Shown piece after piece: positions 1 through 23,153 of a stretch of 24,000 nt of DNA (position 1 is the first letter of the stretch; every line of letters starts with the position of its first letter). The notes under the pieces are model-generated. The model had not been told where the DNA came from. It saw only the letters and a list, made by a program, of their open reading frames with translations, and ran no database searches. Origin of the DNA: Gammaproteobacteria bacterium. Lineage in GTDB: Bacteria; Pseudomonadota; Gammaproteobacteria; Steroidobacterales; GCA-2729495. Position numbers and translations under genes: made by a program. Location: NCBI GenBank assembly GCA_031409515.1, contig JANNXJ010000051.1:25068-49067 (forward strand), given 5' to 3'.

Positions 1-1132
1 TGGCGTAGTTGCCAACACTGGCCAGTACGCGAGGGGTGACATCGGCCCTGACGGATTTCGGGTCCAGAAGCTTTCTCCCGCTCATTTCCTCTATGCACAG
101 TGCACAGCGACAGGCAAGCCGCAGATCCCGGACATCGAAGCGGTCCTCGCGACCGTCCTCCCACAACACGGCGAGCGTGCGCAGGTCTTGCCGGCGCAGG
201 CCTATGGGCCGGACACGGTTTCCCGCGGGCAGGGCCGCGCTTGCCACCCAGCCGGGTGCTCCCTCGTTGGAATCCCACCGCCAGGCAAAAGGCTTGAGCA
301 CTCCACCGCGCGCATTGTTCAGCTGCTCCTCCAGTTGCGCGGCCAGGGCCCCGTAGGCCCGGGCGGCAACGGACTCGGGTCTGGCAATGACGATGGGGCA
401 GCCTTCATCCCCGCCGGTCACGATCTCGGCATCGAGAGGTATCGCACCAAGGAACGGCACCTGCAGCTGCTGGCTCATGCGCTCACCGCCACCACGGCGA
501 AAGACGTCCGTGGTCTCTCCACAGTGTGCACAGGTGAAACCGCTCATGTTCTCAATCACGCCGAGGATGGGCACATGGACCCGCTCAAACATGCGCAGCC
601 CCCGGCGGGCAATCTTCAGACTGACGTCCTGGGGTGTCGTGACGATGACCGCCCCGGACAGGGGTACGCTCTGGGCCAGCGTCAGCTGGATGTCGCCAGT
701 CCCCGGGGGCAGATCCAGCAACAGGAAGTCGAGCGGACCCCACTGGGTAGCGCCGATGAACATCTTGAGGTATTTGCTGACCATAGGGCCGCGGAGGACC
801 GCCGGACTGTCGTCATCGGTGAGCATGGCCATCGACATGGTGCCGATGCCATACCGCTCCACAGGAAGCGCCTGCCCCCCCGGGGTCATCGCTGGGGGCT
901 GGCCAGTGGGGATGCCCAGCATCCCCGGGATGCTCGGTCCCAGAATATCGGCATCCACCAGCCCGACTCGCGCCCCCCGCTGCCGCAGAGCGAGGGCCAG
1001 GTTGACGCTGACCGTCGATTTACCGACACCACCCTTGCCACTGGCCACGGCGATGACGTGGCGGATACCCGGTAACTTCTCCCCTGATGCTCCCGGTTCG
1101 GCACTGGTGGGACCGGTACTTGTGTCTGCCAT
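1..1132 (-). CDS. apbC: Mrp/ApbC-family Fe-S cluster carrier ATPase with a C-terminal DUF971-like domain. The C-terminal end runs off the left edge of the window.
   Basis: This ORF is not in the supplied track because it has no stop inside the window. I translated the minus strand by hand from the ATG at 1132..1130. It gives MADTSTGPTSAEPGASGEKLPGIRHVIAVASGKGGVGKSTVSVNLALALRQRGARVGLVDADILGPSIPGMLG..., which carries the deviant Walker A of the Mrp/NBP35/ParA clade. Further on come LLLDLPPGTGD and the CxxC pair GFTCAHCGE. The tail reads ...VLWEDGREDRFDVRDLRLACRCALCIEEMSGRKLLDPKSVRADVTPRVLASVGNYA, which is a DUF971-type pattern. I saw no in-frame stop down to position 2. Confidence 0.9.
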   Translation of the reverse strand, partial: MADTSTGPTSAEPGASGEKLPGIRHVIAVASGKGGVGKSTVSVNLALALRQRGARVGLVDADILGPSIPGMLGIPTGQPPAMTPGGQALPVERYGIGTMSMAMLTDDDSPAVLRGPMVSKYLKMFIGATQWGPLDFLLLDLPPGTGDIQLTLAQSVPLSGAVIVTTPQDVSLKIARRGLRMFERVHVPILGVIENMSGFTCAHCGETTDVFRRGGGERMSQQLQVPFLGAIPLDAEIVTGGDEGCPIVIARPESVAARAYGALAAQLEEQLNNARGGVLKPFAWRWDSNEGAPGWVASAALPAGNRVRPIGLRRQDLRTLAVLWEDGREDRFDVRDLRLACRCALCIEEMSGRKLLDPKSVRADVTPRVLASVGNYA

Positions 1133-1227
1133 GAGAATTCTGCCTGCGGGAATTGGGACTGGTTCAGTACGATATTCGGCCGGTGAAGGGATCAGTGTCA
1201 AACCGTCCGGGAGCCGGGCCGACGGCA

Positions 1228-1255
1228 GCGGACTTCAATTATAGTGACAGTCCGC
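1228..1255. promoter_or_regulatory. Inverted repeat GCGGACT-N14-AGTCCGC bracketing a TATAGT -10-like hexamer. Candidate promoter and operator for the 1317-6765 operon.
   Basis: GCGGACT (1228-1234) and AGTCCGC (1249-1255) are perfect reverse complements. The AT-rich centre TCAATTATAGTGAC contains TATAGT (1240-1245). The site lies in the 172-185-bp divergent intergenic region between apbC and the DUF2845 gene. Confidence 0.35.
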
Positions 1256-1316
1256 GTCCTGCAGACTTGCCCATCGACGCGGGTAACGATGTGGCTGCAT
1301 CTTCATGAGGAATGAC

Positions 1317-1619
1317 ATGCGTAGTATCCCGGGTTATCTGCTGCTCAGCCTGGCCCTTGGAGCGCTCCTGCCCTCCCTGGCGGCCGCCGATGACAGCAAC
1401 ATGATGCCCGCCACGGGAACCGACAGCTTTCGATGTGGCAGTCACCTGGTCGAAAACGGGATGAGTCTGGCCAAGGTGCAGGAGTACTGCGGTACCCCTA
1501 CCCAGCAGACGTCGGATCGCTGGCTCTACGATCGGGGACCCGACCAGTTCCGGATCATTATCCACGTCCAGCCGGACAATACCGTGGGCATGATCGAGGA
1601 AGAGCAGCCGCAGCAATAG
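1317..1619 (+). CDS. Small secreted protein, DUF2845-like
   Basis: The ORF is open from the ATG at 1305. The second ATG at 1317 has a GAGGAA Shine-Dalgarno 4-5 nt upstream. The signal peptide is MRSIPGYLLLSLALGALLPSLAAA. The mature part contains C..G..V..GMS...V...CG.P......W.Y, the two-Cys pattern I associate with DUF2845. The stop lies 10 nt before the next gene. Confidence 0.65.
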   Translation: MRSIPGYLLLSLALGALLPSLAAADDSNMMPATGTDSFRCGSHLVENGMSLAKVQEYCGTPTQQTSDRWLYDRGPDQFRIIIHVQPDNTVGMIEEEQPQQ

Positions 1620-1629
1620 GCTCCGTTTC

Positions 1630-3003
1630 GTGGTCCTGAGCAGCCTGACCCAGTTCCACGAGAACCCCGTGGTGATCGCCTGGTGGCGTGCCCGCCTGGG
1701 CAGGGCGCTGACAGGCTTTACCCCGGCCCGCCGCCGCGCACTGCTCGCCGCAGGCGCTGTGGTTTTCGCCTTTACCCAGACGCTGCGCCTGCTGAAAAAG
1801 GCCGACGAACTACCGGTGCCCGGGGATCTGCTGGGCAAGGCCAGCGTCATCCTGGCGGGCTTCGGCATTCTGTGGCTGCTGTACCGGGCGGCCCTCGCCT
1901 ATCCCACCCTTCCCGCTGGCGTTCGCCGGTGGCCCCAACTGACGCTGCACCTGGCCTACTGGTTCGTCCTGGTGGTGCTCTGGAACACGGCCCCGACCGG
2001 GGGCTACTGGCGGGGCGTGCTGCTCGGGATAGCGGTCGTGTTTCCCTTTCTGATCTGGCGGTGCGGCTACCTGCTGCTCGCGGGTCAGCAGGGCCGTATG
2101 GGTGGCAGCCGCTTTACCGACCACCTCCTCTACCTCTGGCCGGTCTATGGCGGCTCCCAGACTCCCTACGGCAATGGCCATGGCTACCTGGCCCGTTGCG
2201 AGGCGAAAACGGACGAGCAACTCGCCAGATCCCAGCTCGCCGGCATCAAGCTGATCCTGCTGTCCTTCCTGTGGGGCGCTCTGGCCGACCTGATGGCAGC
2301 GGTGTACGGACCCGGCACTGAGCTGTCCCAGACCCTGGGCGTGCAGCCGGTCACGATCCCCAGACTGCAGGAGATGGTGAAAGGCCAGACTGCGGCGCCT
2401 CTCTGGGCTGCCTGGGCGAGCATCTACTGCGAACTTTTCTGGCAGGTGCTGCGCCATGCCGCCCGGGGCCACCAGATCATTGGCATTCTGCGGGTGTTCG
2501 GCTTCAACGTGTTTCGCAACACCTACAAGCCGCTGCTGGCCCAGTCCATCGTCGGGTTCTGGAATCGTTACTACTACTACTTCAAGGAACTCCTGGCGAC
2601 CTTCTTTTTCCTGCCAACGTTCACCAGCCTCGGCGCTGGACTCCGGAAATGGCCCGCCTTACGCTTGTTACTGGCGGTGTTTGCCGCAGCCTTTGTCGGC
2701 AACATGTACTACCACCTGCTCCAGAGAACCCCCCTGCTGGTCGGTGGCGAGGTCTTCGAGGCACTCTATGACCTGCGCTCCCGGTTCTTCTACTGTTTCC
2801 TGCTGGCAACAGGGATCTTTCTCTCGATGCGCCGGGAGCAGCGCCGATCACGGCAGGCCCTCGCCGCAGGGCCAGTGCAGTTAGTCCTGAACATACTCGG
2901 CGTGTGGACCTTCTTTGGCCTGATCAACATCTGGAACGTGCGCAGTGACGCGCCGTTTTTTGTCCGGGTAGAATTCTTCCTGGGTCTTTTCGGGCTCGCC
3001 TAG
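1630..3003 (+). CDS. Polytopic membrane protein, divergent MBOAT / DltB-like O-acyltransferase
   Basis: About 11-12 hydrophobic segments. The segment GFNVFRNTYKPLLAQSIVGFWNRYYYYF aligns without gaps to the MBOAT/DltB signature as I recall it (G....N..KP....I..FWNRWH.SLS). A His (VGNMYYHLL) sits 49 residues after the R of FWNR, the same spacing as the invariant WHG His in DltB as I recall that sequence. The start codon is GTG at 1630. There is no nearby ATG, so the start is uncertain (GTG at 1669 or 1672 are alternatives). Confidence 0.6.
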   Translation: MVLSSLTQFHENPVVIAWWRARLGRALTGFTPARRRALLAAGAVVFAFTQTLRLLKKADELPVPGDLLGKASVILAGFGILWLLYRAALAYPTLPAGVRRWPQLTLHLAYWFVLVVLWNTAPTGGYWRGVLLGIAVVFPFLIWRCGYLLLAGQQGRMGGSRFTDHLLYLWPVYGGSQTPYGNGHGYLARCEAKTDEQLARSQLAGIKLILLSFLWGALADLMAAVYGPGTELSQTLGVQPVTIPRLQEMVKGQTAAPLWAAWASIYCELFWQVLRHAARGHQIIGILRVFGFNVFRNTYKPLLAQSIVGFWNRYYYYFKELLATFFFLPTFTSLGAGLRKWPALRLLLAVFAAAFVGNMYYHLLQRTPLLVGGEVFEALYDLRSRFFYCFLLATGIFLSMRREQRRSRQALAAGPVQLVLNILGVWTFFGLINIWNVRSDAPFFVRVEFFLGLFGLA

Positions 3004-3027
3004 GCGGTTTCCAGGAAATTCAGAGCC

Positions 3028-4560
3028 ATGTTTCTTGATCTCAAGGTTGGTGCTCTGGCAGAGCCCATCAGCGGCCGGCACTGGGCTGGCACTGACATTC
3101 GCCGGGAAGTCGCTCGGCGGACGGCCCGCTTGCGGCGCCACGGACTGGCGGCCGGAGACCGGGTCTTCCTGCTGTTCGGCAATCGCCTGGAGTTCTTTGC
3201 TGAACTGCTCGCCATCTGGCGGCTCGGCGCCTGCGCCGTGCCCGTCGATGCGCGGCTTACGGCCTTTGAGGTCAACACACTGATCGGCGCTGCAAGGCCG
3301 CGGCTCGCGGTCGTTGACGACGCGACGGACTCAACGGTCCTGGCCGCGCTCACCACCGCTGGCATCCAGGCCGTCAACACCAGCGAGACGGGCAGCCAGG
3401 AGGTCACTGTCGGGCTGAGCCGCCTGGACGATGACGCACTGATCCTGTTCACCTCGGGCTCCACCGGGGCCCCAAAGGGCGTCATCCACACGCATCGCTC
3501 CCTGCGCGCCCGGTGGCTGTCACTGCACGATCACCTCGGCGTCACCGCCTTCTCCAGGACCCTCTGCCTGCTGCCCACCCACTTTGGCCACGGACTCATC
3601 TGTAACAGCCTCTTTCCCTGGCTGGCCGGCCAGGATCTCTACATCACACCACCCTTTCGGGCCGACATCCTCATGCGTCTCGGGGCACTGGTGGATGAAC
3701 ACCGGATCACCTTCATGTCTTCCGTGCCTTCCCTGTGGCGACTGGCCCTGAAGATGTCCCGGCCTCCCCAGGGCGGCACACTGCAGCGGATCCACTGCGG
3801 TTCGGCGCCCCTGTCGGCTGCGGTCTGGGAGGACATTCGCGCCTGGACCGGCACCCGCCAGGTGTGTAACGCCTACGGCATCACGGAGACGGGGAGCTGG
3901 GTCGCGGGGCTCAGCAATGCAGATACCCCGGCAGAGGACGGGCTGATCGGCGCCGGCTGGGGAGCCGTGATCAGGATCCTCAGCACAGCAGATACCTCAG
4001 CCCCCCTCGATGGCAGCCTCGAGTGCGCAGCTGGCGAAGCGGGCTTCGTCTGGCTGAATACTCCGGCGCTGATGAAGGGCTACTTTCAGCGCGACGACCT
4101 GACCCGGCAGGCGGTGGTGGATGGCTGGTTCCTGACGGGGGACATCGGCTGCCTCGATGACCGGGGCCGCCTCGTCCTCCGCGGCCGGGAGCGGGACGAA
4201 ATCAACCGGGGCGGGATGAAGATCTATCCCGGCGATGTGGATGCAGTCGTCGAACGGTTTCCCGGCGTGAACGACGTGTGCACGTTTGCCCTGGACGACG
4301 AGATGTATGGCCAGGCCGTCGGTATGGCCGTTGTACTGAATGCCCGGGATGATGAGACCATCCGTGCCCTGTATCGCTGGATGACAGAGCACCTGGCGGC
4401 CCACAAGATGCCGGGCCGCTGGTGGCTCGTGGACGAGATCCCCCGGACGACCCGGGGCAAGATCAATCGTGATCAGGTCAAGGCGGCGTGCATTAACGAG
4501 CCATCACTGGACCTGATTCGCATCCTAGGTGCCAGCCGGAACCCGGCGGGAAACTCATGA
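3028..4560 (+). CDS. Class I adenylate-forming enzyme (AMP-dependent ligase, functional analogue of DltA)
   Basis: The ANL-superfamily core motifs are all present: LILFTSGSTGAPKGVIHTH (A3), NAYGITETG (A5), WFLTGDIG (A7), GRERDEINRGGMKIYPGDVD (A8) and PRTTRGKINR (A10 Lys). Its stop TGA overlaps the ATG of the carrier-protein gene (ATGA at 4557-4560). Confidence 0.9.
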   Translation: MFLDLKVGALAEPISGRHWAGTDIRREVARRTARLRRHGLAAGDRVFLLFGNRLEFFAELLAIWRLGACAVPVDARLTAFEVNTLIGAARPRLAVVDDATDSTVLAALTTAGIQAVNTSETGSQEVTVGLSRLDDDALILFTSGSTGAPKGVIHTHRSLRARWLSLHDHLGVTAFSRTLCLLPTHFGHGLICNSLFPWLAGQDLYITPPFRADILMRLGALVDEHRITFMSSVPSLWRLALKMSRPPQGGTLQRIHCGSAPLSAAVWEDIRAWTGTRQVCNAYGITETGSWVAGLSNADTPAEDGLIGAGWGAVIRILSTADTSAPLDGSLECAAGEAGFVWLNTPALMKGYFQRDDLTRQAVVDGWFLTGDIGCLDDRGRLVLRGRERDEINRGGMKIYPGDVDAVVERFPGVNDVCTFALDDEMYGQAVGMAVVLNARDDETIRALYRWMTEHLAAHKMPGRWWLVDEIPRTTRGKINRDQVKAACINEPSLDLIRILGASRNPAGNS

Positions 4561-4835
4561 CCGCGACCCGGGAGCAGCGCCTGGCGCACCTGCAGACCTT
4601 TCTTCGCAGCATCCAGAAGCCCGGCAAACCTCTGGGCAGCGTCGGCATTGATGACAACCTGGTGGACTCAGGCCTCATCGACTCCCTGGCCATCGTCCAG
4701 ATCGTGGCCTACCTCGAGGAGACTTACGGGCTGGACTTCGCCGCACGGGGCGTAGATCCGGAAACCCTGGCGTCGATGGGGAGCATTCTGGCCCTGATAG
4801 ACGCGGCCGGCGCGACCTCTGTAACGCAGTCCTAG
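4557..4835 (+). CDS. Phosphopantetheine-binding carrier protein, DltC-like
   Basis: 92 aa. The motif LVDSGLIDSLAIVQIVAYLEETYG contains the G-L-(I/L)-D-S-(L/F) pantetheinylation Ser context that resembles D-alanyl carrier protein DltC (EEGLLDSFGTVELL). The gene is translationally coupled to the ligase gene. Confidence 0.85.
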   Translation: MTATREQRLAHLQTFLRSIQKPGKPLGSVGIDDNLVDSGLIDSLAIVQIVAYLEETYGLDFAARGVDPETLASMGSILALIDAAGATSVTQS

Positions 4836-4851
4836 CCAGGGATTCCTGCTC

Positions 4852-6765
4852 ATGCTCATCGCCCGCTGGGGCTTCATTCTGCGGCGCCTGGGCCTCGTGA
4901 TGCTTCTCTACAGCATCCTGCGCTGCCTGTTTCTGGTCTTCAACCAGGTGCTGTACACCCAGGCATCAGGCGCGGAGATCGCCCGGGCATTTCTCTATGG
5001 CCTCCGGTTTGACGTCTCGGCGACGGTTGCCACCAATGCGATTTTTCTGCTTCTGTGCCTGGTGCCCCGGCAAGAGCCTATGGGAGCCGGGTATCTGCGC
5101 TTACTGAAGACCCTGTTCCTGGCCCTGAACATTCCGTTTCTGCTGATCAGCGCCATTGACCTGGAGTACTTCAGTTTCAACGGCAGGCGCTCGACCCTGG
5201 ACCTGCTCAGCCTGGCGGGGGACGCGGGCGTCAAGTGGCTGGGGCTGATTACCACGTACTGGCCCGTGCTCCTGATCAGCACGGCGCTCAGTGCCGCACT
5301 GTGGCTCTTCTACGGCCAAACCCCTGCAACCGCCAACACCCCCGCTCCGCGGCCCCGGCTTGGCGTAGCCACCTGGGCCCTGAACCTCATCGTTGGTATC
5401 GCACTTGCCGTCGTGGCGATCCGCGGTGGCCTCCAGTCAAAGCCCATCAGCTCCGCGGATGCCGCTTCCCTGGGACGAAGCGAACTGGCGCAGCTGGCAC
5501 TCAACTCTTCACTGACCGTGATCAAGAGCTACAAGAAATCGCCACTCAAGCGTTACAAGTATGTGGAACCGGCTGCCCTGCTGCCCTACCTCCGTAAACA
5601 GATCGACGGCCGGAAACTGATCCCGGATGTCCCGCGGGCCGACAACATCGTCATCCTGATTCTGGAGAGCTTCTCAGCAGAGTACTGGGGTGCCGGCAAC
5701 GGCGGTGGACGCTACACCCCATTTCTTGACGCTCTGGCCAGTCAGTCCCTGTTCCTGCCTCAGCACTACGCGAATGGCCGCCGATCCCGGGATGCGGTGC
5801 CCGCCATACTGGCCGGAATGCCGGCCCTGATGACTGATTCGATGCTCGATTCACTCTATGCCGCCAACGACATTGTCGGCCTGGGGACTTTGCTCGCGCC
5901 ACGGGGCTACACCACGAGTTTCTTTCACGGCGCGACGACGGGCACCATGCACTTCGATACGTTCACGCGGATTGCCGGCATCAACCACTACCTTGGGCTG
6001 GAAGACTATCCGGACCCGAAGGATTTCGACGGGCGCTGGGGAGTCTTCGACGAGCCCTATCTGCAATACGTGTCCCGGGAACTGAGCCAGCAGAAACCGC
6101 CCTTCGCCGCCGTCATCTTTACGGTGACCTCGCACAATCCCTACCCCATCCCTAAAAAGTATCGGGGCAGGTTCAGCAAGGGCACCCTCCCGATTCACGA
6201 GACGATCGGCTACACGGACCATGCCCTGGAACAGTTTTTCGCCACGGCGAGCCGGCAGCCCTGGTTCGCCAACACGCTCTTCATCATTACCGGCGACCAT
6301 ACCGAGACGCTGGAAACGCCGGACTACGTGAACGCACTGGGCCAGTACCGCGTGCCGCTGCTGGTTTACAAACCGGGAGTCACGTTTTCAGGGGTCGACC
6401 CCCGTCGGGTGACCGAGCACGCGGATATCCTGCCGTCGGTGCTCGATTATCTGGGGATCGAGCCCGGGCGCCGCCTGCTCTTTGGCAAGTCGATTTTTCG
6501 CGCCGGAGAAGGCCGCGCGTTCCTGAATGCCAATGGCCACTACTGGCTGGTCCGCGGTGACGATGCCCTGGAGTTCGTGCCGGGCAGCCTGAGTCAGACG
6601 TTCCGTCTCGACACAGACCGGCAGCTGAAGGCGCCCAGCACGGACCAGACCCCCCGCCGGGCGGAACTGGAACTGGAGGCCAAGGCACTCATCCAGTACT
6701 ACAACGACGGCGTCCTGGACAACCGGCTCTACGACACGGGCCTGGCGACGCCTCAGGCCCCCTGA
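4852..6765 (+). CDS. LtaS-family (LTA synthase / phosphoglycerol transferase) membrane-anchored alkaline-phosphatase-superfamily enzyme
   Basis: An N-terminal multi-TM region (about 5 helices) is followed by an extracytoplasmic sulfatase-fold domain. The domain carries NIVILILESFSAEYWG (metal-binding Glu), FFHGATTGTMHFD (Thr nucleophile region), TVTSHNPYP and FIITGDHTE (Asp/His metal ligands). These are all hallmarks of LtaS/OpgB-type enzymes. Confidence 0.85.
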   Translation: MLIARWGFILRRLGLVMLLYSILRCLFLVFNQVLYTQASGAEIARAFLYGLRFDVSATVATNAIFLLLCLVPRQEPMGAGYLRLLKTLFLALNIPFLLISAIDLEYFSFNGRRSTLDLLSLAGDAGVKWLGLITTYWPVLLISTALSAALWLFYGQTPATANTPAPRPRLGVATWALNLIVGIALAVVAIRGGLQSKPISSADAASLGRSELAQLALNSSLTVIKSYKKSPLKRYKYVEPAALLPYLRKQIDGRKLIPDVPRADNIVILILESFSAEYWGAGNGGGRYTPFLDALASQSLFLPQHYANGRRSRDAVPAILAGMPALMTDSMLDSLYAANDIVGLGTLLAPRGYTTSFFHGATTGTMHFDTFTRIAGINHYLGLEDYPDPKDFDGRWGVFDEPYLQYVSRELSQQKPPFAAVIFTVTSHNPYPIPKKYRGRFSKGTLPIHETIGYTDHALEQFFATASRQPWFANTLFIITGDHTETLETPDYVNALGQYRVPLLVYKPGVTFSGVDPRRVTEHADILPSVLDYLGIEPGRRLLFGKSIFRAGEGRAFLNANGHYWLVRGDDALEFVPGSLSQTFRLDTDRQLKAPSTDQTPRRAELELEAKALIQYYNDGVLDNRLYDTGLATPQAP

Positions 6766-7802
6766 CCCTGACCCTGCTGACCCTGAACAGGAGCCGGTGA
6801 TTCTCCAGCGTTGCTGGGACTCCGGCCGGTCCAGCGCCGGTAGGCCCGGGAAAAATTGCTCTGATCCGAGAAGCCCAGCAGGTAAGCAATTTCGGCCTGG
6901 CTGAAGCGGGCTTCCCGGAGGTACGCGTCTGCCAGGCTTCTGCGGGTCGCGTCGAGGACGCGGCGATAGTTGAGCCCCTCGGACTGGAGCTGGCGCTGCA
7001 GGGTGCTGAGGCTGCAGTTGAGGCGGGCAGCCACGGTCTCCTGGCCCACCTCGCCGGTGGGCAACAGCTCACGCAGGATGCGGCGCACCTGGGTCGCAAC
7101 GGGCTGTGGCTGCAAGTCAGCGACATAACGCTCGGCCAGTTGATCCATGAGGACGGACACGTCGGGATTGTCCGTCGGCAGGACCGCCTCGGCAGTGGCG
7201 CTATCGAGCCGCAGGCCGTTCGTTGCCGCATCGAACTCCACCGGGACACCGAACGCGGCGTGGTAGACCGCGGCGGTCGCGCGGCAAGCATGGCGGAGGG
7301 ACACGGAACGCGGTCTCACAGGATGCCCTGCTGCCCGCTCAGCAAGGGTTAACAGAGCCATCAGGGTCGCATCGATCCCCGCCTCGTGGGGCTGCTGGGC
7401 AGGATCCGGAAACGCCGCGGTGAACTGGCAGCCCGCACTGGAAGACATAACGCTGGCGGCTACGGGGAGCGTACTGAGGACCTTGATGTACCGGCAGTAG
7501 CGTTGCAGCGCGTCTGCCAGCGTGCGGCTGCTCATCCACGCGTACCCCAGTGCGTGGAGGCCCTCGGGCCGGACCCGCCGACCAACCTTCAGGCCCAGCG
7601 CCGGGTCCCCGGTGGCGGCCACAGCTTCCTCCCACAACCGCCGTGAGGCGCTTTGGGAGACCCGGGCGCCCGACTCCCGCGTACGGGCCAGGGAAATCCC
7701 CGCGGCTGCGAACAGGGGGCCTGGATCCTTCTGGTAGTCCTGATCCAGCACCTCCGCCAGATAGCGCAGGGCCGTCGCCAGGTTTGTGGCTTCCAGGAGC
7801 AT
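6753..7802 (-). CDS. AraC-family transcriptional regulator with an N-terminal AraC-type ligand-binding domain
   Basis: The C-terminal double HTH reads ...LNCSLSTLQRQLQSEGLNYRRVLDATRRSLADAYLREARFSQAEIAYLLGFSDQSNFSRAYRRWTGRSP. The N-terminal approximately 200 aa (ATALRYLAEVL...LFAAAGIS) resemble the 'arabinose-binding domain of AraC'-type sensor. The 3' end overlaps the LtaS-like gene by 13 nt in convergent orientation. Confidence 0.85.
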   Translation of the reverse strand: MLLEATNLATALRYLAEVLDQDYQKDPGPLFAAAGISLARTRESGARVSQSASRRLWEEAVAATGDPALGLKVGRRVRPEGLHALGYAWMSSRTLADALQRYCRYIKVLSTLPVAASVMSSSAGCQFTAAFPDPAQQPHEAGIDATLMALLTLAERAAGHPVRPRSVSLRHACRATAAVYHAAFGVPVEFDAATNGLRLDSATAEAVLPTDNPDVSVLMDQLAERYVADLQPQPVATQVRRILRELLPTGEVGQETVAARLNCSLSTLQRQLQSEGLNYRRVLDATRRSLADAYLREARFSQAEIAYLLGFSDQSNFSRAYRRWTGRSPSNAGESPAPVQGQQGQGQGA

Positions 7803-8361: not shown

Positions 8362-8667
8362 TTATTTGGCCGGCGGAGGCCCGGGATCCTTGCGGAAGTA
8401 GTCCGGAGGCCTTGCCAGACAGGCAGCGCCGTCAACCTGGGCGTCCGCGACCTGCGGCGGGATCACATAGCCGGACCCCCGGTTGGGGGCCGCGAGCCCG
8501 TCGGGGGTAACCACCAGCGGCAGGCTGGTGGCAAGCTGGTACTCGGACACGTCATCGCAGCGGGCGTCCGGGTTCTTGCCACCGAAACAGCCGGTCAGTC
8601 CGCCAACCAGGGCAGCCAGAACCAGGGCCCGGGACCAGCGCGCTGCCTGCAGGGCTCCGCAGGACAC
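8362..8667 (-). CDS. bamC: Small lipoprotein, probably a minimal BamC (N-terminal BamD-binding segment only)
   Basis: Lipobox LVGGLTG|C. The gene sits immediately downstream of dapA (4-nt gap), the conserved dapA-bamC(nlpB) position. YQLATSLPLVVTPDGLAAPNRGSGYVIPP resembles the E. coli BamC N-terminal region [29 protein letters not shown]. It is only 101 aa, against about 344 aa in E. coli. Confidence 0.55.
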   Translation of the reverse strand: MSCGALQAARWSRALVLAALVGGLTGCFGGKNPDARCDDVSEYQLATSLPLVVTPDGLAAPNRGSGYVIPPQVADAQVDGAACLARPPDYFRKDPGPPPAK

Positions 8668-17193: not shown

Positions 17194-17329
17194 GGCATAA
17201 ACCTCCGGTTCTTGAATTTCATCCCGCGCTGGGACGCGCTGACTGACCACCACGCCGGGGTCAGAGGCGCGGCGGGGAAGAATAGCAAATTCCCGGTCGC
17301 GACCGGCCCAAAGGGTTCCCCCAGGCGGG

Positions 17330-17354
17330 ATACTGGACTAAGATAGTCCCATAT
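17330..17354. promoter_or_regulatory. Candidate Rrf2/IscR type-1-like operator
   Basis: The sequence ATACTGGACTAAGATAGTCCCATAT matches the E. coli IscR type-1 consensus ATASYYGACTRWWWYAGTCRRSTAT at 20 of 25 positions by my count. The core GGACTA-AGA-TAGTCC (17335-17349) is a perfect inverted repeat. It ends 17 nt upstream of the Rrf2 regulator start codon. Confidence 0.6.
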
Positions 17355-17371
17355 AGATTTGGCCCCGAATT

Positions 17372-17881
17372 ATGCTCCGCATCAGCAAACTGACTGACTA
17401 CGGCACGATGATCCTGGTGCATCTGGCCGTGCAGGCCCGTGGGGCAAAGGACGGCGTCGTGGACCCTGAGCACCTGTGCTCTGCCAGCGATGTTGCTTCT
17501 GGAACGCGCCTGGCACTCCCGACAGTGCAGAAGCTTCTCAAGGTGCTGGCCCGGAGCGAACTCGTGCGGTCTGTCCGCGGTTCTGAGGGTGGCTACGCGC
17601 TGGCACGGAATCCGGCGACGATCACCGCAGCGGAAATTCTCGACGTCTTTGAGGGTCCGCTCAGCATCACCGAGTGCAGTACCGCCGACAGCCGGTGCGA
17701 ACTGGAGGATGGCTGCCCGACCGGCGGTGCCTGGCAGAAGATCAACCGGGGCATTCGTGGAGCCCTCGATGAGATAACCCTGGCGGACCTCGCCCACCCG
17801 CCCCGGGAGTTTCCGCTGGTGGATCTGTCTGGCCGCTCCAGCCGGCTGCGCCACCGCCCTCCTACCCCTGGCCAAGGATGA
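17372..17881 (+). CDS. Rrf2-family (IscR-like) SUF-system Fe-S assembly regulator
   Basis: N-terminal winged HTH (MLRISKLTDYGTMILVHLA...LPTVQKLLKVLARSELVRSVRGSEGGYALA) and a three-Cys cluster-ligand motif C-x6-C-x5-C (ECSTADSRCELEDGC). It is the first gene of the suf operon. Confidence 0.88.
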   Translation: MLRISKLTDYGTMILVHLAVQARGAKDGVVDPEHLCSASDVASGTRLALPTVQKLLKVLARSELVRSVRGSEGGYALARNPATITAAEILDVFEGPLSITECSTADSRCELEDGCPTGGAWQKINRGIRGALDEITLADLAHPPREFPLVDLSGRSSRLRHRPPTPGQG

Positions 17882-17887
17882 GCTGAC

Positions 17888-19335
<1,448 letters not shown>

Positions 19336-19339
<4 letters not shown>

Positions 19340-20097
19340 GCACGTTGCTGGAAGTCTCTGGTCTCCGCGTAGCGGTAGGTGGCAAGGAGATCCTGACGGG
19401 TCTCGATCTTGTGGTTCGCGCTGGTGAGGTCCACGCGATCATGGGCCCGAACGGCTCGGGCAAGAGCACACTGGCCCACGTTTTGTCCGGGCGGGACGGT
19501 TACGTAGTCACTGGGGGCTCGGTGAGCTATCAGGGCCTTGACCTGCTCGCCATGGCTCCCGAAGAACGCGCCAGGGCTGGCCTGTTTCTCGGCTTCCAGT
19601 ATCCGGTCGAGATCCCTGGCGTCAGTAACGTCTACCTGCTGCGCTCGGCGCTGAATGCCCGCAGATCCGCCCGGGGGGAGAGTGAGATCGATGCAGCGGG
19701 TTTTCTGCGCCTGGTGAAAGCCAAGGCGCGACTGATGCAGATGGATGAGAGCTTCCTGCAGAGGGGTGTCAATGAGGGGTTCTCTGGCGGCGAGAAAAAG
19801 CGCAACGAGATCTTCCAGATGGCGGTCCTCGAACCCGTCCTTGCCATCCTCGACGAGACAGACTCAGGACTGGATATTGATGCCCTGAAGATCGTGTCAA
19901 ATGGCGTCAACAGCCTGCGAGACCCTGCGCGGGCCTTTATCCTGGTGACTCACTATCAGCGGCTGCTGGACTACATCAGGCCGGATTTCGTGCACGTCCT
20001 GGCCGGCGGCCGCATCATTCGTACCGGCGACCATACGCTGGCCCTTGAACTGGAGGCGGACGGTTACGAACAGATCCTCGCCGCTGCCAGTACCTGA
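19336..20097 (+). CDS. sufC: Fe-S cluster assembly ATPase SufC
   Basis: [17 protein letters not shown] (Walker A), [22 protein letters not shown] and [15 protein letters not shown]. The TTG start overlaps the sufB stop (TTGA). Confidence 0.95.
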
Positions 20098-20107
20098 GGC
20101 AATCGCC

Positions 20108-21448
20108 GTGGCGCCATCAACGATGCGGGAGGACACCCGCGACCAGACGGGCAACCGCCGCCCCTGGCAAGTCGCTGCAGAGCAATTAAGCCACACGGCC
20201 TCTGGACTCGACTGGCTGACTGAACGCCGCACCGCTGCCCTGGTCCGCGCAGACCGCCTCGGCCTGCCCGACCAGAGCCAGGAAGAGTGGCGGTACACGA
20301 GTCTCACTCCGTTTGCGCGGCGCTGGCTGGATCACCTGGCCGGGGCGCGCCTGCCTGCCGTCCCGGAACCGGTGCCCCCCACCCTGGCAGGCGTATTCAG
20401 CGTGGACATCGTCGACGGAATGCTCTGTGCTCCTCTGCTCGCGACCCCGCCAGGCCTCACGATACAGTCGCTCCAGAACCTTGGCGCGGAGTGGCGGACA
20501 CGGGTGGAAGCGCTGCTTGGAAGCGCGGTGAGCCCTACAGACACCTCCGCCAGCGACAGTCTGATAGATCTCAATACGGCCTTGCTGACTGACCTGATAC
20601 TGGTTACGACAGAACCGGGAGCCAGCGTGGCAATACCCATTCATATGCGGCTTCAGGCCACTGCCGCATCGGCGCTTTGCCAGACCAGACTGCTGGTCGA
20701 TCTGGCGGCAGGCAGCAGGCTGACCCTGAGCCTGGAGTTCACCGGGACAGCCGGTGTCCTGGTGAATGCTGTCTCCCAGATGTGTCTGGGCCGGGACAGC
20801 GAGCTGAACCTGGTCCGCGTGCAGGCGCTGCCCGATGACGGCATGCTCCTGGAGTCGACGAGCATCGAGGCCAATGATTCTGCTGCCGTCACGGTCACCA
20901 GCGTCGATCTCGGCGGGCAGCTCAGTCGACAGTCCCTGACGGTGCGCCTGGCCGGAACCGGAGCCAGCGCCACCGTGCATGGGCTGTTCCTCGCCGACGG
21001 CCAGCGCCATATAGACAACCGCACAAGGTTGCAGCACGAGGCCCCGTCGACGACCAGTCGGGAGTTCTTCCGGGGCATCGCCGCTGACCATGGCCACGGA
21101 GTGTTCAGCGGCAAGATCATCGTGCAGCCCGGAGCGGCAGGCAGCAACGCTGCTCTGACCAACCGCAATCTCCTGCTCACGACGACGGCGGAGATCGATA
21201 CGAAGCCCGAGCTGGAGATCTATGTGGACGACGTCCGCTGCAGCCACGGTGCAACCACAGGGCAGCTGGACGCCAACGCCCTCTTCTACCTGCAATCCCG
21301 GGGACTCGATCTGAGCACCGCCCGGCAGGTGCTCACAGCGGCATTTCTGCGGGATAGCCTCACCGGCATTCCCTTGCCTGAACTCCGCGAACGGCTGGAA
21401 GCGCGGCTCGAGAGCCGCTTGCAGGCTCAGACCGGGGCCGCACGGTGA
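20108..21448 (+). CDS. sufD: Fe-S cluster assembly protein SufD
   Basis: EEWRYTSL near the N-terminus. The C-terminal part reads ...TKPELEIYVDDVRCSHGATTGQLDANALFYLQSRGL, the SufBD-family signature. The start is uncertain: GTG 20108 has a weak TGAGG Shine-Dalgarno, and ATG 20123 is the alternative. The ORF is open from 20045, inside sufC. Confidence 0.9.
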   Translation: MAPSTMREDTRDQTGNRRPWQVAAEQLSHTASGLDWLTERRTAALVRADRLGLPDQSQEEWRYTSLTPFARRWLDHLAGARLPAVPEPVPPTLAGVFSVDIVDGMLCAPLLATPPGLTIQSLQNLGAEWRTRVEALLGSAVSPTDTSASDSLIDLNTALLTDLILVTTEPGASVAIPIHMRLQATAASALCQTRLLVDLAAGSRLTLSLEFTGTAGVLVNAVSQMCLGRDSELNLVRVQALPDDGMLLESTSIEANDSAAVTVTSVDLGGQLSRQSLTVRLAGTGASATVHGLFLADGQRHIDNRTRLQHEAPSTTSREFFRGIAADHGHGVFSGKIIVQPGAAGSNAALTNRNLLLTTTAEIDTKPELEIYVDDVRCSHGATTGQLDANALFYLQSRGLDLSTARQVLTAAFLRDSLTGIPLPELRERLEARLESRLQAQTGAAR

Positions 21449-22683
21449 GCCTGATTACTGCCAGCCCCCCGCTGGACGTCGAGACCATCCGGGGCGACTT
21501 TCCGATACTTGCACAGCAGGTCAATGGTCATCCGCTGGCCTACCTCGACAACGCGGCTTCATCCCAGCGACCGCTGCAGGTTCTTGAAGCCATGCAGAAC
21601 TACTACACCCACGATCATGCCAACGTGCACCGGGGTGTCCACAGCCTCAGCCACCGGGCAACGGACCACTATGAAGCAGCGCGGGAAACCGTCCGGGCCT
21701 TCGTTAATGCCGCATCAGTGCGGGAGATCATCTTCACCCGGGGTACTACTGAAGCGATCAACCTGGTCGCTTTCAGTTTCGGTCAGCGACTGCAGGCAGG
21801 CGATGAGATCCTCATTACGGCAATGGAGCATCACTCCAACATAGTGCCCTGGCAACTGCTCTGCGAGCGCAGCGGTGCCGTCCTCCGGGTTGCCCCCATC
21901 AACGACGCGGGCGAACTCGTTCTTCCCGAATTCATGGCACTGCTCGGTCCGCGGACGAAGCTGGTGGCAATCACCCACGTTTCCAATGCACTGGGCACGG
22001 TCAATCCGGTAAAGGTACTCATTGCCGCCGCCCGGAGCCGGGGCATACCGGTGCTGCTGGACGGCGCACAGGCGATCCCCCACCAGGCTGTGGATGTCCG
22101 GGACCTGGACTGCGACTTCTACGCCTTCTCGGGCCACAAGATGTGCGGACCCACCGGCATTGGCGTGCTCTACGGTCGCGAGGCCATGCTCCAGGATCTG
22201 CCGCCTTTCCAGAGTGGCGGGGACATGATCCTTACCGTCAGCTTCAAGGGCACCACCTATAACGAACTCCCCTACCGGTTCGAGGCGGGCACGCCCCACA
22301 TCGCCGGGGCGATCGGCCTCGCTGCCGCCATCAACTACCTCACCCGCCTTGGCCTGCCGAGCATCGCCGCCTGGGAGGCCGGACTGCTCAGCTACGCTAC
22401 GGAGTTGCTGCTGCAGCTTCCGGGCCTGTCGATTGTTGGTACTGCACGGGACAAAGCCAGCCTGGTCTCCTTCAATATCGCGGGCATCCACCCCCACGAT
22501 CTGGGCACTATCCTCGACCAGCGCGGCGTGGCAATCCGGGCCGGCCACCACTGCGCCATGCCGGTGATGGAGCGCTTTGGCCTGGCGGGTACGGCGCGGG
22601 CCTCCTTCGCCTTCTACAACACCCGCGGGGAGATCGACCAGCTACTGGACGCCCTGCGCCTTGCCCAACGGATGTTCGCCTGA
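21445..22683 (+). CDS. sufS: Cysteine desulfurase SufS (group II)
   Basis: IRGDFPILAQQVNGHPLAYLDNAASSQRP, the PLP-Lys region FYAFSGHKMCGPTGIGVLYG, and the catalytic Cys in RAGHHCAMP. The GTG start overlaps the sufD stop (GTGA). Confidence 0.95.
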   Translation: MSLITASPPLDVETIRGDFPILAQQVNGHPLAYLDNAASSQRPLQVLEAMQNYYTHDHANVHRGVHSLSHRATDHYEAARETVRAFVNAASVREIIFTRGTTEAINLVAFSFGQRLQAGDEILITAMEHHSNIVPWQLLCERSGAVLRVAPINDAGELVLPEFMALLGPRTKLVAITHVSNALGTVNPVKVLIAAARSRGIPVLLDGAQAIPHQAVDVRDLDCDFYAFSGHKMCGPTGIGVLYGREAMLQDLPPFQSGGDMILTVSFKGTTYNELPYRFEAGTPHIAGAIGLAAAINYLTRLGLPSIAAWEAGLLSYATELLLQLPGLSIVGTARDKASLVSFNIAGIHPHDLGTILDQRGVAIRAGHHCAMPVMERFGLAGTARASFAFYNTRGEIDQLLDALRLAQRMFA

Positions 22684-23153
22684 TGTCCGCGCCCGTCAGG
22701 GAGTTGACCGACCTTTACCGGCAGATCGTTCTGGATCACAGCCGTCACCCGCGCCACCAGGGTCGGCCCGAGCATTACAACCGGGAGGCGGAGGGCCACA
22801 ATCCCCTCTGCGGCGACAAGGTCCGGATCTATCTTCAGCTGCAGGATGATCTGCTGCAGGATGTCACCTTCGAGGCCTCCGGCTGTGCCATCTGTCTGGC
22901 CTCGGCTTCCCTGATGGCCGAGACAGTGCGCCGGCGCCCACTGCTTGAGGCCAGGGCTTCCGTCGACGAGTTCGACAGGGCTTTGTCGACCGGTGCTGGC
23001 GCCACCCTGACTGGAGATCTCGCGGCACTTGGAGGGGTCAGTCAGTATCCCTCCCGTATCCGGTGCGCCACACTGCCCTGGAAAACACTCCTGGCTGCAA
23101 TGGATGCAACCTCCGCGACAGTGACTACCGAACAAGAGAGCATCCAGCGATGA
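22683..23153 (+). CDS. sufU: SufU/IscU-like (NifU N-terminal family) sulfur-transfer or scaffold protein
   Basis: LYRQIVLDHSRHPRH..., NPLCGDKV, FEASGCAICLASASLM and RIRCATLPW give the Cys/Asp ligand set and overall pattern of SUF-associated NifU-family proteins. The start overlaps the sufS stop (TGATG). Confidence 0.8.
   Translation: MSAPVRELTDLYRQIVLDHSRHPRHQGRPEHYNREAEGHNPLCGDKVRIYLQLQDDLLQDVTFEASGCAICLASASLMAETVRRRPLLEARASVDEFDRALSTGAGATLTGDLAALGGVSQYPSRIRCATLPWKTLLAAMDATSATVTTEQESIQR

Follow-up and report, generated by a model that had tools for sequence, protein, structure and literature searches.

A DltB-like membrane protein linked to a ligase and a carrier protein: a putative acyl-export module in a diderm gammaproteobacterium

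In Firmicutes, the Dlt proteins (DltA, DltC, DltB, DltX and DltD) carry out D-alanylation of the lipoteichoic acid that is made by LtaS. Acyl- and phospho-substituents on lipopolysaccharide (LPS), periplasmic glucans and teichoic acids set the surface charge of the cell, its resistance to antimicrobial peptides and polymyxin, and its recognition by the host. Here we analyse a stretch of 24,000 nucleotides (the window) from a Gammaproteobacteria bacterium (assembly GCA_031409515.1, contig JANNXJ010000051.1, positions 25,068 to 49,067), in which a block of five genes, g1 to g5, encodes a small secreted protein, a DltB-like membrane protein of MBOAT fold, an adenylate-forming ligase, a carrier protein and an LtaS-family enzyme, respectively. 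We propose that g2, g3 and g4 may form a carrier-dependent module for export of an acyl group. Coordinates are positions in the window, and in gene orders B denotes the gene of the MBOAT-like protein (g2 in the window), LIG the ligase gene, CP the carrier gene and S the LtaS-family gene.

Bacterial MBOATs characterised so far pass the acyl group via the Tyr of an FxYxxF hexapeptide, located in DltX or at the MBOAT's C-terminal end, to an SGNH-type transferase (DltD or PatB, for example), and the carrier-protein-fed mechanism of Dlt has been described in the same work (PMC12148441). Similar to Dlt, the window locus combines an adenylate-forming enzyme and a small dedicated carrier with a DltB-like MBOAT-fold protein in which the FWNR motif is aligned, and an LtaS-family gene is associated. 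However, the ligase belongs to the acyl-CoA-synthetase type, DltD (SGNH), DltX and the FxYxxF motif are all missing, and a Tyr is present in place of His289 of DltB. Moreover, g2 is missed by the Pfam MBOAT models, the host is diderm, and g5 has Ser as its nucleophile and scores far below the LtaS cut-off. To our knowledge, all mechanistically understood bacterial MBOAT systems have both a Tyr shuttle motif and an SGNH transferase, and the only carrier-fed one among them is the Gram-positive Dlt.

In PatA/PatB (peptidoglycan O-acetylation), AlgI/AlgJ/AlgX and WssH, an inner-membrane MBOAT takes an acyl group out of the cytoplasm and delivers it to a periplasmic polymer of a diderm cell (PMC12148441), a transfer which g2 would perform as well. 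Unlike the g2 module, these systems draw on acyl-CoA and work without a ligase or a carrier; they carry a C-terminal FxYxxF motif and need an SGNH partner. The AlmEFG system of Vibrio cholerae, which places glycine on lipid A, likewise modifies the envelope of a Gram-negative by means of a DltA-like ligase and a carrier resembling DltC (PMC4278540), and LPS is a plausible target here too. However, AlmG is an LpxL-type acyltransferase rather than an MBOAT, and AlmE activates glycine whereas g3 is without an amino-acid signature; no LpxL-type (AlmG) match was found among the five proteins or the other scanned open reading frames (ORFs) of the window. Bordetella dra and other Gram-negative dlt-like loci (mentioned in PMC9410548 and PMC4448142) resemble the window locus in that a proteobacterium combines an MBOAT with a carrier and a ligase of dlt type. 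These loci reportedly keep a canonical DltB that Pfam recognises, along with DltD and a ligase of DltA type, and the window locus has none of the three.

A further comparison is with the decoration of osmoregulated periplasmic glucans (OPG) in E. coli by OpgB (phosphoglycerol), OpgE (phosphoethanolamine) and OpgC (succinyl), as the same three chemistries appear around the module in different genomes, in the form of an LtaS/OpgB-family transferase, an EptA/CptA-family transferase and the proposed passage of an acyl group through the inner membrane. By this analogy, a succinyl-like substituent would be in keeping with a ligase of dicarboxylate type. OpgC itself belongs to the acyltransferase-3 proteins and works with no ligase or carrier. 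The window locus also differs from the OPG system in that g5 reaches 33 bits against an OpgB cut-off of 574, no opgGH genes are nearby, and orthologues of g5 are located beside LPS-core rather than glucan genes. An earlier note on this DNA, made from the sequence alone, could not map the gene combination to a described system. This still holds, since the literature searched gave no carrier-fed MBOAT in Gram-negatives beyond canonical dlt-like loci and AlmEFG.

The membrane protein g2, the ligase g3 and the carrier g4

The gene g2 (1630-3003, plus strand, GTG start) encodes a polytopic membrane protein of 457 amino acids (aa) belonging to an unannotated family. Its AlphaFold2 model has a predicted local distance difference test score (pLDDT) of 87.7 and a predicted template-modelling score (pTM) of 0.85. 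When this model was searched against the PDB with Foldseek, the top nine matches were all MBOATs. DltB (8jem, 6bug) is the best structural match with E 4e-6 and template-modelling (TM) scores of 0.57/0.62, followed by PORCN, HHAT, LPCAT3 and DGAT1, and then by unrelated membrane proteins with TM scores below 0.2.

For comparison at the level of profiles, the DltB sequence of S. thermophilus was taken from the PDB, where it was found with an approximate DltB query; it has His289 within FWNRWH and the catalytic His336 within GFWHG. Aligned by hhalign with a profile of 48 g2-family sequences, it gave a probability of 82.7% and E 9.4e-6 in local mode (the global-mode alignment was meaningless). 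The alignment spans g2 residues 193-328 on DltB 182-302 and places GFNVFRNTYKPLLAQSIVGFWNRYY on GIKSPINFDKPFISRDMKEFWNRWH, GFN..RNTYKPLLA..FWNRYY of g2 being paired with the latter and the MBOAT core motif FWNRYY (FWNRYYYYFKE at 310-320 of g2) lying on FWNRWH289. The profile comparison gained nothing from 11 further streptococcal DltB sequences, since these are 77-91% identical to each other. The earlier note had read g2 as DltB/MBOAT-like, and this reading is borne out by the AlphaFold2 model, by DltB ranking first in Foldseek and by the profile alignment over the core motif; the 457-aa protein, which might have turned out to lack any MBOAT or DltB similarity, is directed to DltB by structure and hhalign alike. 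As judged from the model, g2 counts as a divergent MBOAT-fold protein and comes nearest to DltB.

His362 of g2, located in the motif GNMYYH, lies 47 residues past the position aligned with His289, which equals the spacing between His289 and His336 in DltB. It is invariant in 36 close members of the family and at least 90% conserved in 48 diverse members, while Asn358, Lys319, Glu320 and Arg313 are invariant in the g2 family alignments. His362 is thus probably the catalytic His of g2, with Asn358 as a further candidate, and Asn358, Lys319 and Glu320 may stand in for the missing second polar residue of the active site (His289 in DltB, Asn/Asp in other MBOATs). Close to the N-terminus, within residues 8-19 (encoded in 1630-1700), the motif QFHEN (8-12) is followed by WW, and Phe9, His10 and Trp19 are invariant in close members. 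The C-terminal tail (446-457, encoded in 2950-3003) contains FFLGLFGLA and follows the family pattern R-x-x-FFL[GS]LFG[LIF][AS], which has no Tyr and sits where other bacterial MBOATs carry the Tyr shuttle motif. The family comprises 926 clusters at 50% identity (E <= 1e-3), or 336 at E <= 1e-30, and its members appear as 'hypothetical protein' in the few sources that name them.

The ligase gene g3 (3028-4560, plus strand) encodes an adenylate-forming (ANL) enzyme of 510 aa and of the acyl-CoA-synthetase type, identified by the Pfam families AMP-binding (E 1e-57) and AMP-binding_C and 56-76% identical across phyla. Its best NCBIfam matches are FadD-like, MenE and malonyl-CoA synthase models, all of them below their cut-offs and the FadD models far below. 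The nearest solved relatives in the PDB are FadD13, MatB (malonyl-CoA synthetase), FadD5, oxalate-CoA ligase and MenE, and DltA is absent among the 60 best. The motifs A3 (TSGSTGAPKG at 142), A4 (THFGHGL at 184) and A10 (RGK(478)INR) are present. In DltA and in the A domains of non-ribosomal peptide synthetases, the Asp of FDxS binds the alpha-amino group of the substrate. The A4 region of g3, LLPTHFGHGLICN (PTHFGHGL), has no acidic residue. We therefore do not retain a DltA-like ligase, as implied by the earlier dlt-like interpretation, and transfer of a D-alanyl or aminoacyl group at the window locus appears unlikely, because g3 lacks the amino-binding Asp and has FadD13 and the malonyl- and oxalate-CoA ligases as its nearest relatives. 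Instead, g3 presumably loads a carboxylic acid onto g4.

The carrier gene g4 (4557-4835, plus strand) encodes a protein of 92 aa with a phosphopantetheine site at Ser43 in the motif GLIDS(43)LAIV, of which D-S-L is invariant in 34 orthologues. The Pfam PP-binding model matches it with E 2e-6 and 28.2 bits against a cut-off of 20.8, whereas the DltC equivalogs give 19.4 and 12.9 bits against cut-offs of 68 and 52, and the acyl carrier protein (ACP) equivalogs are also below their cut-offs. By these scores g4 classifies as a generic carrier protein and not demonstrably as DltC. Pseudomonas pohangensis (LT629785.1, locus L086, around 1,219,000-1,224,000), which is cultured and fully sequenced, has the gene order PPTase-B-LIG-CP-lyase, where PPTase is a phosphopantetheinyl transferase of 239 aa (Pfam ACPS; L086 7988-8707) directly upstream of the MBOAT gene. 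The presence of this enzyme next to the module supports g4 as a genuine phosphopantetheinylated carrier. We also considered the OlsH/OlsI ornithine-lipid pathway, the ACP model of which g4 matches weakly (25 vs 130 bits), and rejected it as this pathway uses a GH3-like enzyme and not an MBOAT (PMC12493201).

Conservation of the triad and its recurring neighbours

A scan of one genome per species yielded 168 relatives of g2, and 79 loci were examined, with subsets of 54 anchored loci and 39 loci with enough flank. The 79 loci come from Beta- and Gammaproteobacteria, Binatia, Desulfobacterota, Verrucomicrobia, Methylomirabilota and one metagenome-assembled genome (MAG) labelled Spirochaetota, all of which are diderm. 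A ligase of the window type (56-91% identical) adjoins the g2 homologue in 67 of the 79 loci and a carrier gene in 61, and in just three loci with enough flank the ligase is not adjacent. The gene order is B-LIG-CP in Proteobacteria and LIG-CP-B in Binatia and the delta lineages. This difference between lineages speaks for selection on the gene set and against inherited synteny. The window together with the survey thus upholds the close coupling of an MBOAT with an adenylate-forming ligase and a carrier in a diderm host, as noted earlier from the window. The conserved unit is this MBOAT-ligase-carrier triad. Co-conservation of all five genes, which had also been expected, is not seen, because g2-g3-g4 is the sole conserved unit in the survey, and DUF2845 with the exact five-gene arrangement occurs only in the two closest relatives of the window (L001 and L002, about 90% identity).

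A second subtype was found in which an MBOAT-like protein 28-56% identical to g2 is accompanied by a carrier and by a ligase with FDVS/FDIS at A4, that is, of the amino-acid type (L023 8056-11386; L047 406-3637; L061 5754-9054; and L087 3-2884, with the distant member P0311). The g2 family, taken as a whole, is therefore carrier-protein-dependent, and its branches appear to export different acyl groups; the window branch is, by its A4 signature, the non-amino-acid one. That the second subtype is also carrier-fed strengthens the view that g2 works like DltB. With about 900 clusters at 50% identity, the g2 family is distinct in being invisible to Pfam and NCBIfam, carrier-fed, without a shuttle motif or SGNH partner, and restricted to diderms in the 79 loci. 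Dlt-like acyl export by an MBOAT is known; in the putative module described here, the MBOAT comes from a protein family missed by annotation resources.

The gene g5 (4852-6765, plus strand) encodes a membrane phosphotransferase of the LtaS/OpgB family with 637 aa. A crude hydropathy scan places its hydrophobic segments within residues 8-190, which gives an N-terminal transmembrane bundle followed by a periplasmic domain of alkaline-phosphatase type (Pfam Sulfatase, E 3e-40, domain 265-536). In the PDB, it matches VP1736 (3LXQ), an uncharacterised Vibrio protein, with E 1.7e-30 and the LtaS ectodomain with E 1e-15. The catalytic residues, judged to be intact in the earlier note, are so indeed: E272, S312, H428, D482 and H483 align with Glu255, Thr300, His416, Asp475 and His476 of LtaS and are invariant in 21 orthologues, Ser312 being the nucleophile where LtaS has Thr300. 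As to the proposed LtaS-type enzyme, the architecture and active site are those of the LtaS family, but synthesis of polyglycerol-phosphate is not indicated, in view of a score of 65.2 bits against the LtaS equivalog cut-off of 970 and of neighbourhoods of LPS-core type. The OpgB models give 32.6 and 26.3 bits (cut-offs 574 and 572). Orthologues of g5 that are 58-62% identical occur without the triad between genes of Glyco_transf_9 (heptosyltransferase type), GT2 and ArnT-like (PMT, PMT_2) proteins (L080 5261-17579 and L083 4965-9849). With heptosyltransferase and ArnT-like genes around these orthologues, the neighbourhood suggests that g5 acts on LPS core or lipid A and not on a polymer of polyglycerol-phosphate. 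By analogy with its family, g5 would transfer glycerol phosphate from phosphatidylglycerol, a donor chemistry of phosphoglycerol type.

LtaS-family genes are located by the module in 19 loci and CptA/EptA-family genes in eight; a CptA neighbour scores 830 bits against a cut-off of 404. Two lineages of LtaS-family proteins, about 27% identical to each other, occur beside B, and the arrangements include B-LIG-CP-S (as in the window), LIG-CP-B-S, B-S and divergent S/B. The B-S pairs without ligase and carrier (L013 2864-6900, L022 2700-6100 and L024 732-4171) are second copies, the complete triad of these MAGs being located on a different contig (L013 with L019, L024 with L012). An alkaline-phosphatase-family membrane transferase (LtaS- or EptA/CptA-family) lies within 6 kb in 14 of the 39 well-flanked loci (36%), which is well above chance by a rough estimate, not a computed control, in that few such genes per genome would give a few per cent. 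Joint action of the MBOAT module and an LtaS-family transferase, as proposed earlier, thus gains real support from two lineages in at least four orders by the MBOAT gene, but the exact five-gene unit is limited to one lineage.

In the delta lineages and Binatia, the module is flanked by ArnT-like, BacA and DedA genes. Two MAGs titled Deltaproteobacteria (L070 3500-9400 and L075 6390-13100) show the order ArnT-like-BacA (undecaprenyl-diphosphatase)-DedA-ligase-carrier-MBOAT-LtaS-family, a layout reminiscent of polymyxin-resistance loci.

A 286-aa protein of the isocitrate lyase (ICL)/phosphoenolpyruvate (PEP)-mutase family follows the module in 24 loci (15 of the 39 well-flanked ones; for example L021 13177-14037 and L086 12158-13012) and is 68-93% identical across phyla. 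It has the lyase loop RRCGH, and its nearest relatives are petal death protein (PDP), oxaloacetate acetylhydrolase (OAH), 2,3-dimethylmalate lyase (DMML) and methylisocitrate lyase (MICL). This PDP/OAH-like lyase is the best candidate source of the acid for the ligase and, taken together with the affinity of g3 to MatB and oxalate ligase, hints at a short acid or a dicarboxylate as substrate. A role of the 286-aa protein as PEP mutase in phosphonate biosynthesis was considered and rejected in view of the RRCGH loop and of these nearest relatives, true PEP mutase being a far weaker match.

The absence of DltD, pointed out earlier for this locus, extends beyond it: none is present in the window, and no recurrent SGNH-like neighbour cluster was found in the 54 anchored loci. 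In the same 54 loci, no DltX-like microprotein (a small hydrophobic ORF with FxYxxF) was found within 6 kb.

Proposed function and alternative explanations

Our preferred reading, to which we assign a probability of roughly 0.5, is that g2-g3-g4 is a carrier-dependent acyl-export module which puts a non-amino carboxylic acid on LPS core, lipid A or another periplasmic glycan that is also phospho-substituted by enzymes of the g5 type. As regards the direction of transfer, the acid, the acceptor and the cooperation of g2 with g5, we infer the following scheme. In the cytoplasm, g3 would adenylate a non-amino carboxylic acid, maybe a short acid or a dicarboxylate, and then join it as a thioester to the phosphopantetheine arm on Ser43 of g4. 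The acyl-g4 would dock at the cytoplasmic face of g2, which would move the acyl group through a membrane tunnel, past His362 and Asn358, to an acceptor at the periplasmic face of the inner membrane. Because a Tyr shuttle motif, DltX and an SGNH partner are all missing, g2 probably acylates the acceptor directly, like eukaryotic MBOATs, or hands the acyl group over to a different partner. On its part, g5 would place a phospho-alcohol substituent (phosphoglycerol type, with a phospholipid donor) on LPS core, lipid A or another periplasmic glycan, and g2 would acylate this substituent or the molecule that bears it. By analogy, the module would correspond to the first part of the Dlt pathway, in a version suited to the diderm envelope.

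Several observations weigh against this proposal. In Pfam (E <= 0.1) and NCBIfam g2 is unmatched, including by the MBOAT models PF03062 and PF13813; ten distant members of its family gave no MBOAT match in Pfam (E <= 1); and a profile of 36 g2 homologues found no solved MBOAT among all PDB sequences, only chance matches to myosin. As Pfam and NCBIfam are silent, the MBOAT nature of g2 could be recognised only through structure. In the profile alignment, the position of DltB His289 is Tyr315 in the g2 family, and since the alignment ends at residue 328, the equivalence of His362 and His336 is by spacing only. With respect to the partners, a g5-type gene lies beside the triad in only four surveyed loci (the window, L001, L002 and L066), and the closest g5 orthologues outside the window lineage lack the triad. 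A periplasmic transferase partner is not universally conserved, the triad being located mostly among housekeeping genes, and the PDP/OAH-like lyase is absent from the window.

Among the alternatives, one that we consider rather unlikely is remodelling of membrane lipids, with g3 loading a fatty acyl group on g4 and g2 acylating a lysophospholipid or diacylglycerol in the manner of LPCAT or DGAT, from an acyl-carrier instead of acyl-CoA. LtaS-, CptA- and EptA-type enzymes consume a phospholipid head group and release diacylglycerol, and generation of diacylglycerol is the sole property common to the LtaS-family and CptA neighbours. Long-chain ligases of FadD type number among the best relatives of g3 in NCBIfam and the PDB, the structural search with g2 also retrieved LPCAT3 and DGAT1, and the lack of both the Tyr shuttle motif and an SGNH partner is what a direct lipid acyltransferase would predict. 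However, DltB is a clearly better match to g2 than the lipid MBOATs (E 4e-6 vs 4e-2 to 0.35), and g3 is far below the cut-offs of all FadD models. The subtype with an amino-acid-type ligase argues for small polar acyl groups, and the linked PDP/OAH-like lyase together with the very conserved ligase suggests a specific small acid and not bulk fatty acids.

It is also unlikely, in our judgement, that the triad acts independently of g1 and g5, in which case g5 would be a common phosphotransferase of LPS or glucan, g1 would be a periplasmic protein of unrelated role, and both would share a transcript with the triad in the window lineage only. Such independence would agree with the restriction of the g1 and g5 arrangement to the window, L001 and L002, with the 25 of 39 well-flanked loci that have the triad without a sulfatase-family gene, and with the existence of g5 orthologues without the triad. 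It would leave unexplained why LtaS-family genes of two lineages are found by the MBOAT gene in at least four orders, including the B-S pairs devoid of ligase and carrier, and why the share of loci with a membrane transferase nearby is 36% against the few per cent of the rough estimate; the gap of only 16 nt before g5 moreover suggests co-transcription.

Finally, a true equivalent of dlt, in which D-alanylation or aminoacylation of a glycerol-phosphate substituent or polymer made by g5 would yield a cationic modification protective against antimicrobial peptides (the model of the earlier note), is very improbable, since the A4 region of g3 is without the Asp for the alpha-amino group, its nearest relatives are acyl-, malonyl- and oxalyl-CoA ligases with DltA missing from the 60 best solved ones, neither DltD nor DltX is present, and g5 falls far short of the LtaS cut-off (65 bits vs 970) with orthologues in LPS-core neighbourhoods, even though the B-A-C logic and an LtaS-family gene are united in one operon, DltB is the closest fold to g2, sister loci of the family have an amino-acid-type ligase, and the ArnT-like, CptA, BacA and DedA neighbours are such as polymyxin-resistance loci typically have.

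If the acyl-export reading is carried beyond the window, a tentative and more far-reaching suggestion is that of a widespread and so far unrecognised diderm pathway, in which DltB-like MBOATs would be supplied with an unusual small acid by their own ligase and carrier and would esterify it onto LPS or a periplasmic glycan without the Tyr shuttle and SGNH transferase, the acid being made in many genomes by the linked PDP/OAH-like lyase, maybe with a partner of the LtaS or CptA family. Should this small-acid pathway exist, it would mean a new substituent of LPS or glycan and a new way to finish an MBOAT-mediated transfer. Characterisation of the module could reveal such a new envelope substituent, explain the role of LtaS-family proteins in Gram-negatives and supply a family model for annotation, and cultured Pseudomonas pohangensis, which carries the module, offers a practical experimental system.

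Gene layout, the secreted protein g1 and the host

Close packing of five co-oriented genes between 1305 and 6765, as described earlier, agrees with the ORFs that we find there, the spacings being 10, 24 and 16 nt, with g3 and g4 joined by an ATGA overlap visible in the sequence. Through this overlap, g4 is predicted to be translationally coupled to g3. The gene g5 is overlapped at its stop by a convergent gene for an AraC/QhpR-like regulator (6753-7802). On the other side, a divergent gene for an Fe-S cluster carrier ATPase of mrp/apbC type (1-1131, minus strand; partial, as it runs past the beginning of the window, with a C-terminal extension) likely starts near 1131, and the intergenic region between it and g1 (1132..1304, plus strand) is the presumed promoter region, as inferred from gene layout alone. 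A scan of 1132..1304 for the sigma-70 consensus gave zero matches, a scan for promoters and terminators gave counts no higher than background, and the block was unmatched in a DNA search of a plasmid collection.

The first gene of the block, g1 (1305-1619, plus strand), encodes a small secreted DUF2845 protein of 104 aa (Pfam E 7e-9) with two Cys and a Sec signal peptide ending ...LAAA|DD. Pfam thus backs the assignments made for four of the five proteins, namely DUF2845 for g1, AMP-binding for g3, PP-binding for g4 and Sulfatase for g5. A single-sequence AlphaFold2 model of g1 has a core pLDDT of 85-93, and its top Foldseek matches (BamE, OsmE and BLIP-like proteins) are all weak (E 0.03-0.1) but consistent, with a BamE/OsmE-like core. 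The literature searched for DUF2845 held nothing relevant, and we regard g1 as a lineage-specific periplasmic accessory or passenger gene.

The outer-membrane context that had been deduced from the surrounding genes holds for BepA, MlaA and MlaFEDCB, which are encoded in the window, whereas the 'bamC' of the earlier note is unconfirmed: at its site, the ORF after dapA (8362-8667, minus strand) encodes 101 aa with a lipoprotein-like signal (…LTGC) and has no match in Pfam or NCBIfam. Elsewhere the window encodes DapA and a suf cluster with an Rrf2 regulator (17372-23153). Since BepA, MlaA, MlaFEDCB, DapA and the suf cluster are all encoded here, the host is a diderm proteobacterium. An ORF of 371 aa (17261-18376, minus strand) with no family match overlaps the gene of the Rrf2 regulator on the opposite strand and is probably spurious, like many long antisense ORFs of this GC-rich window.

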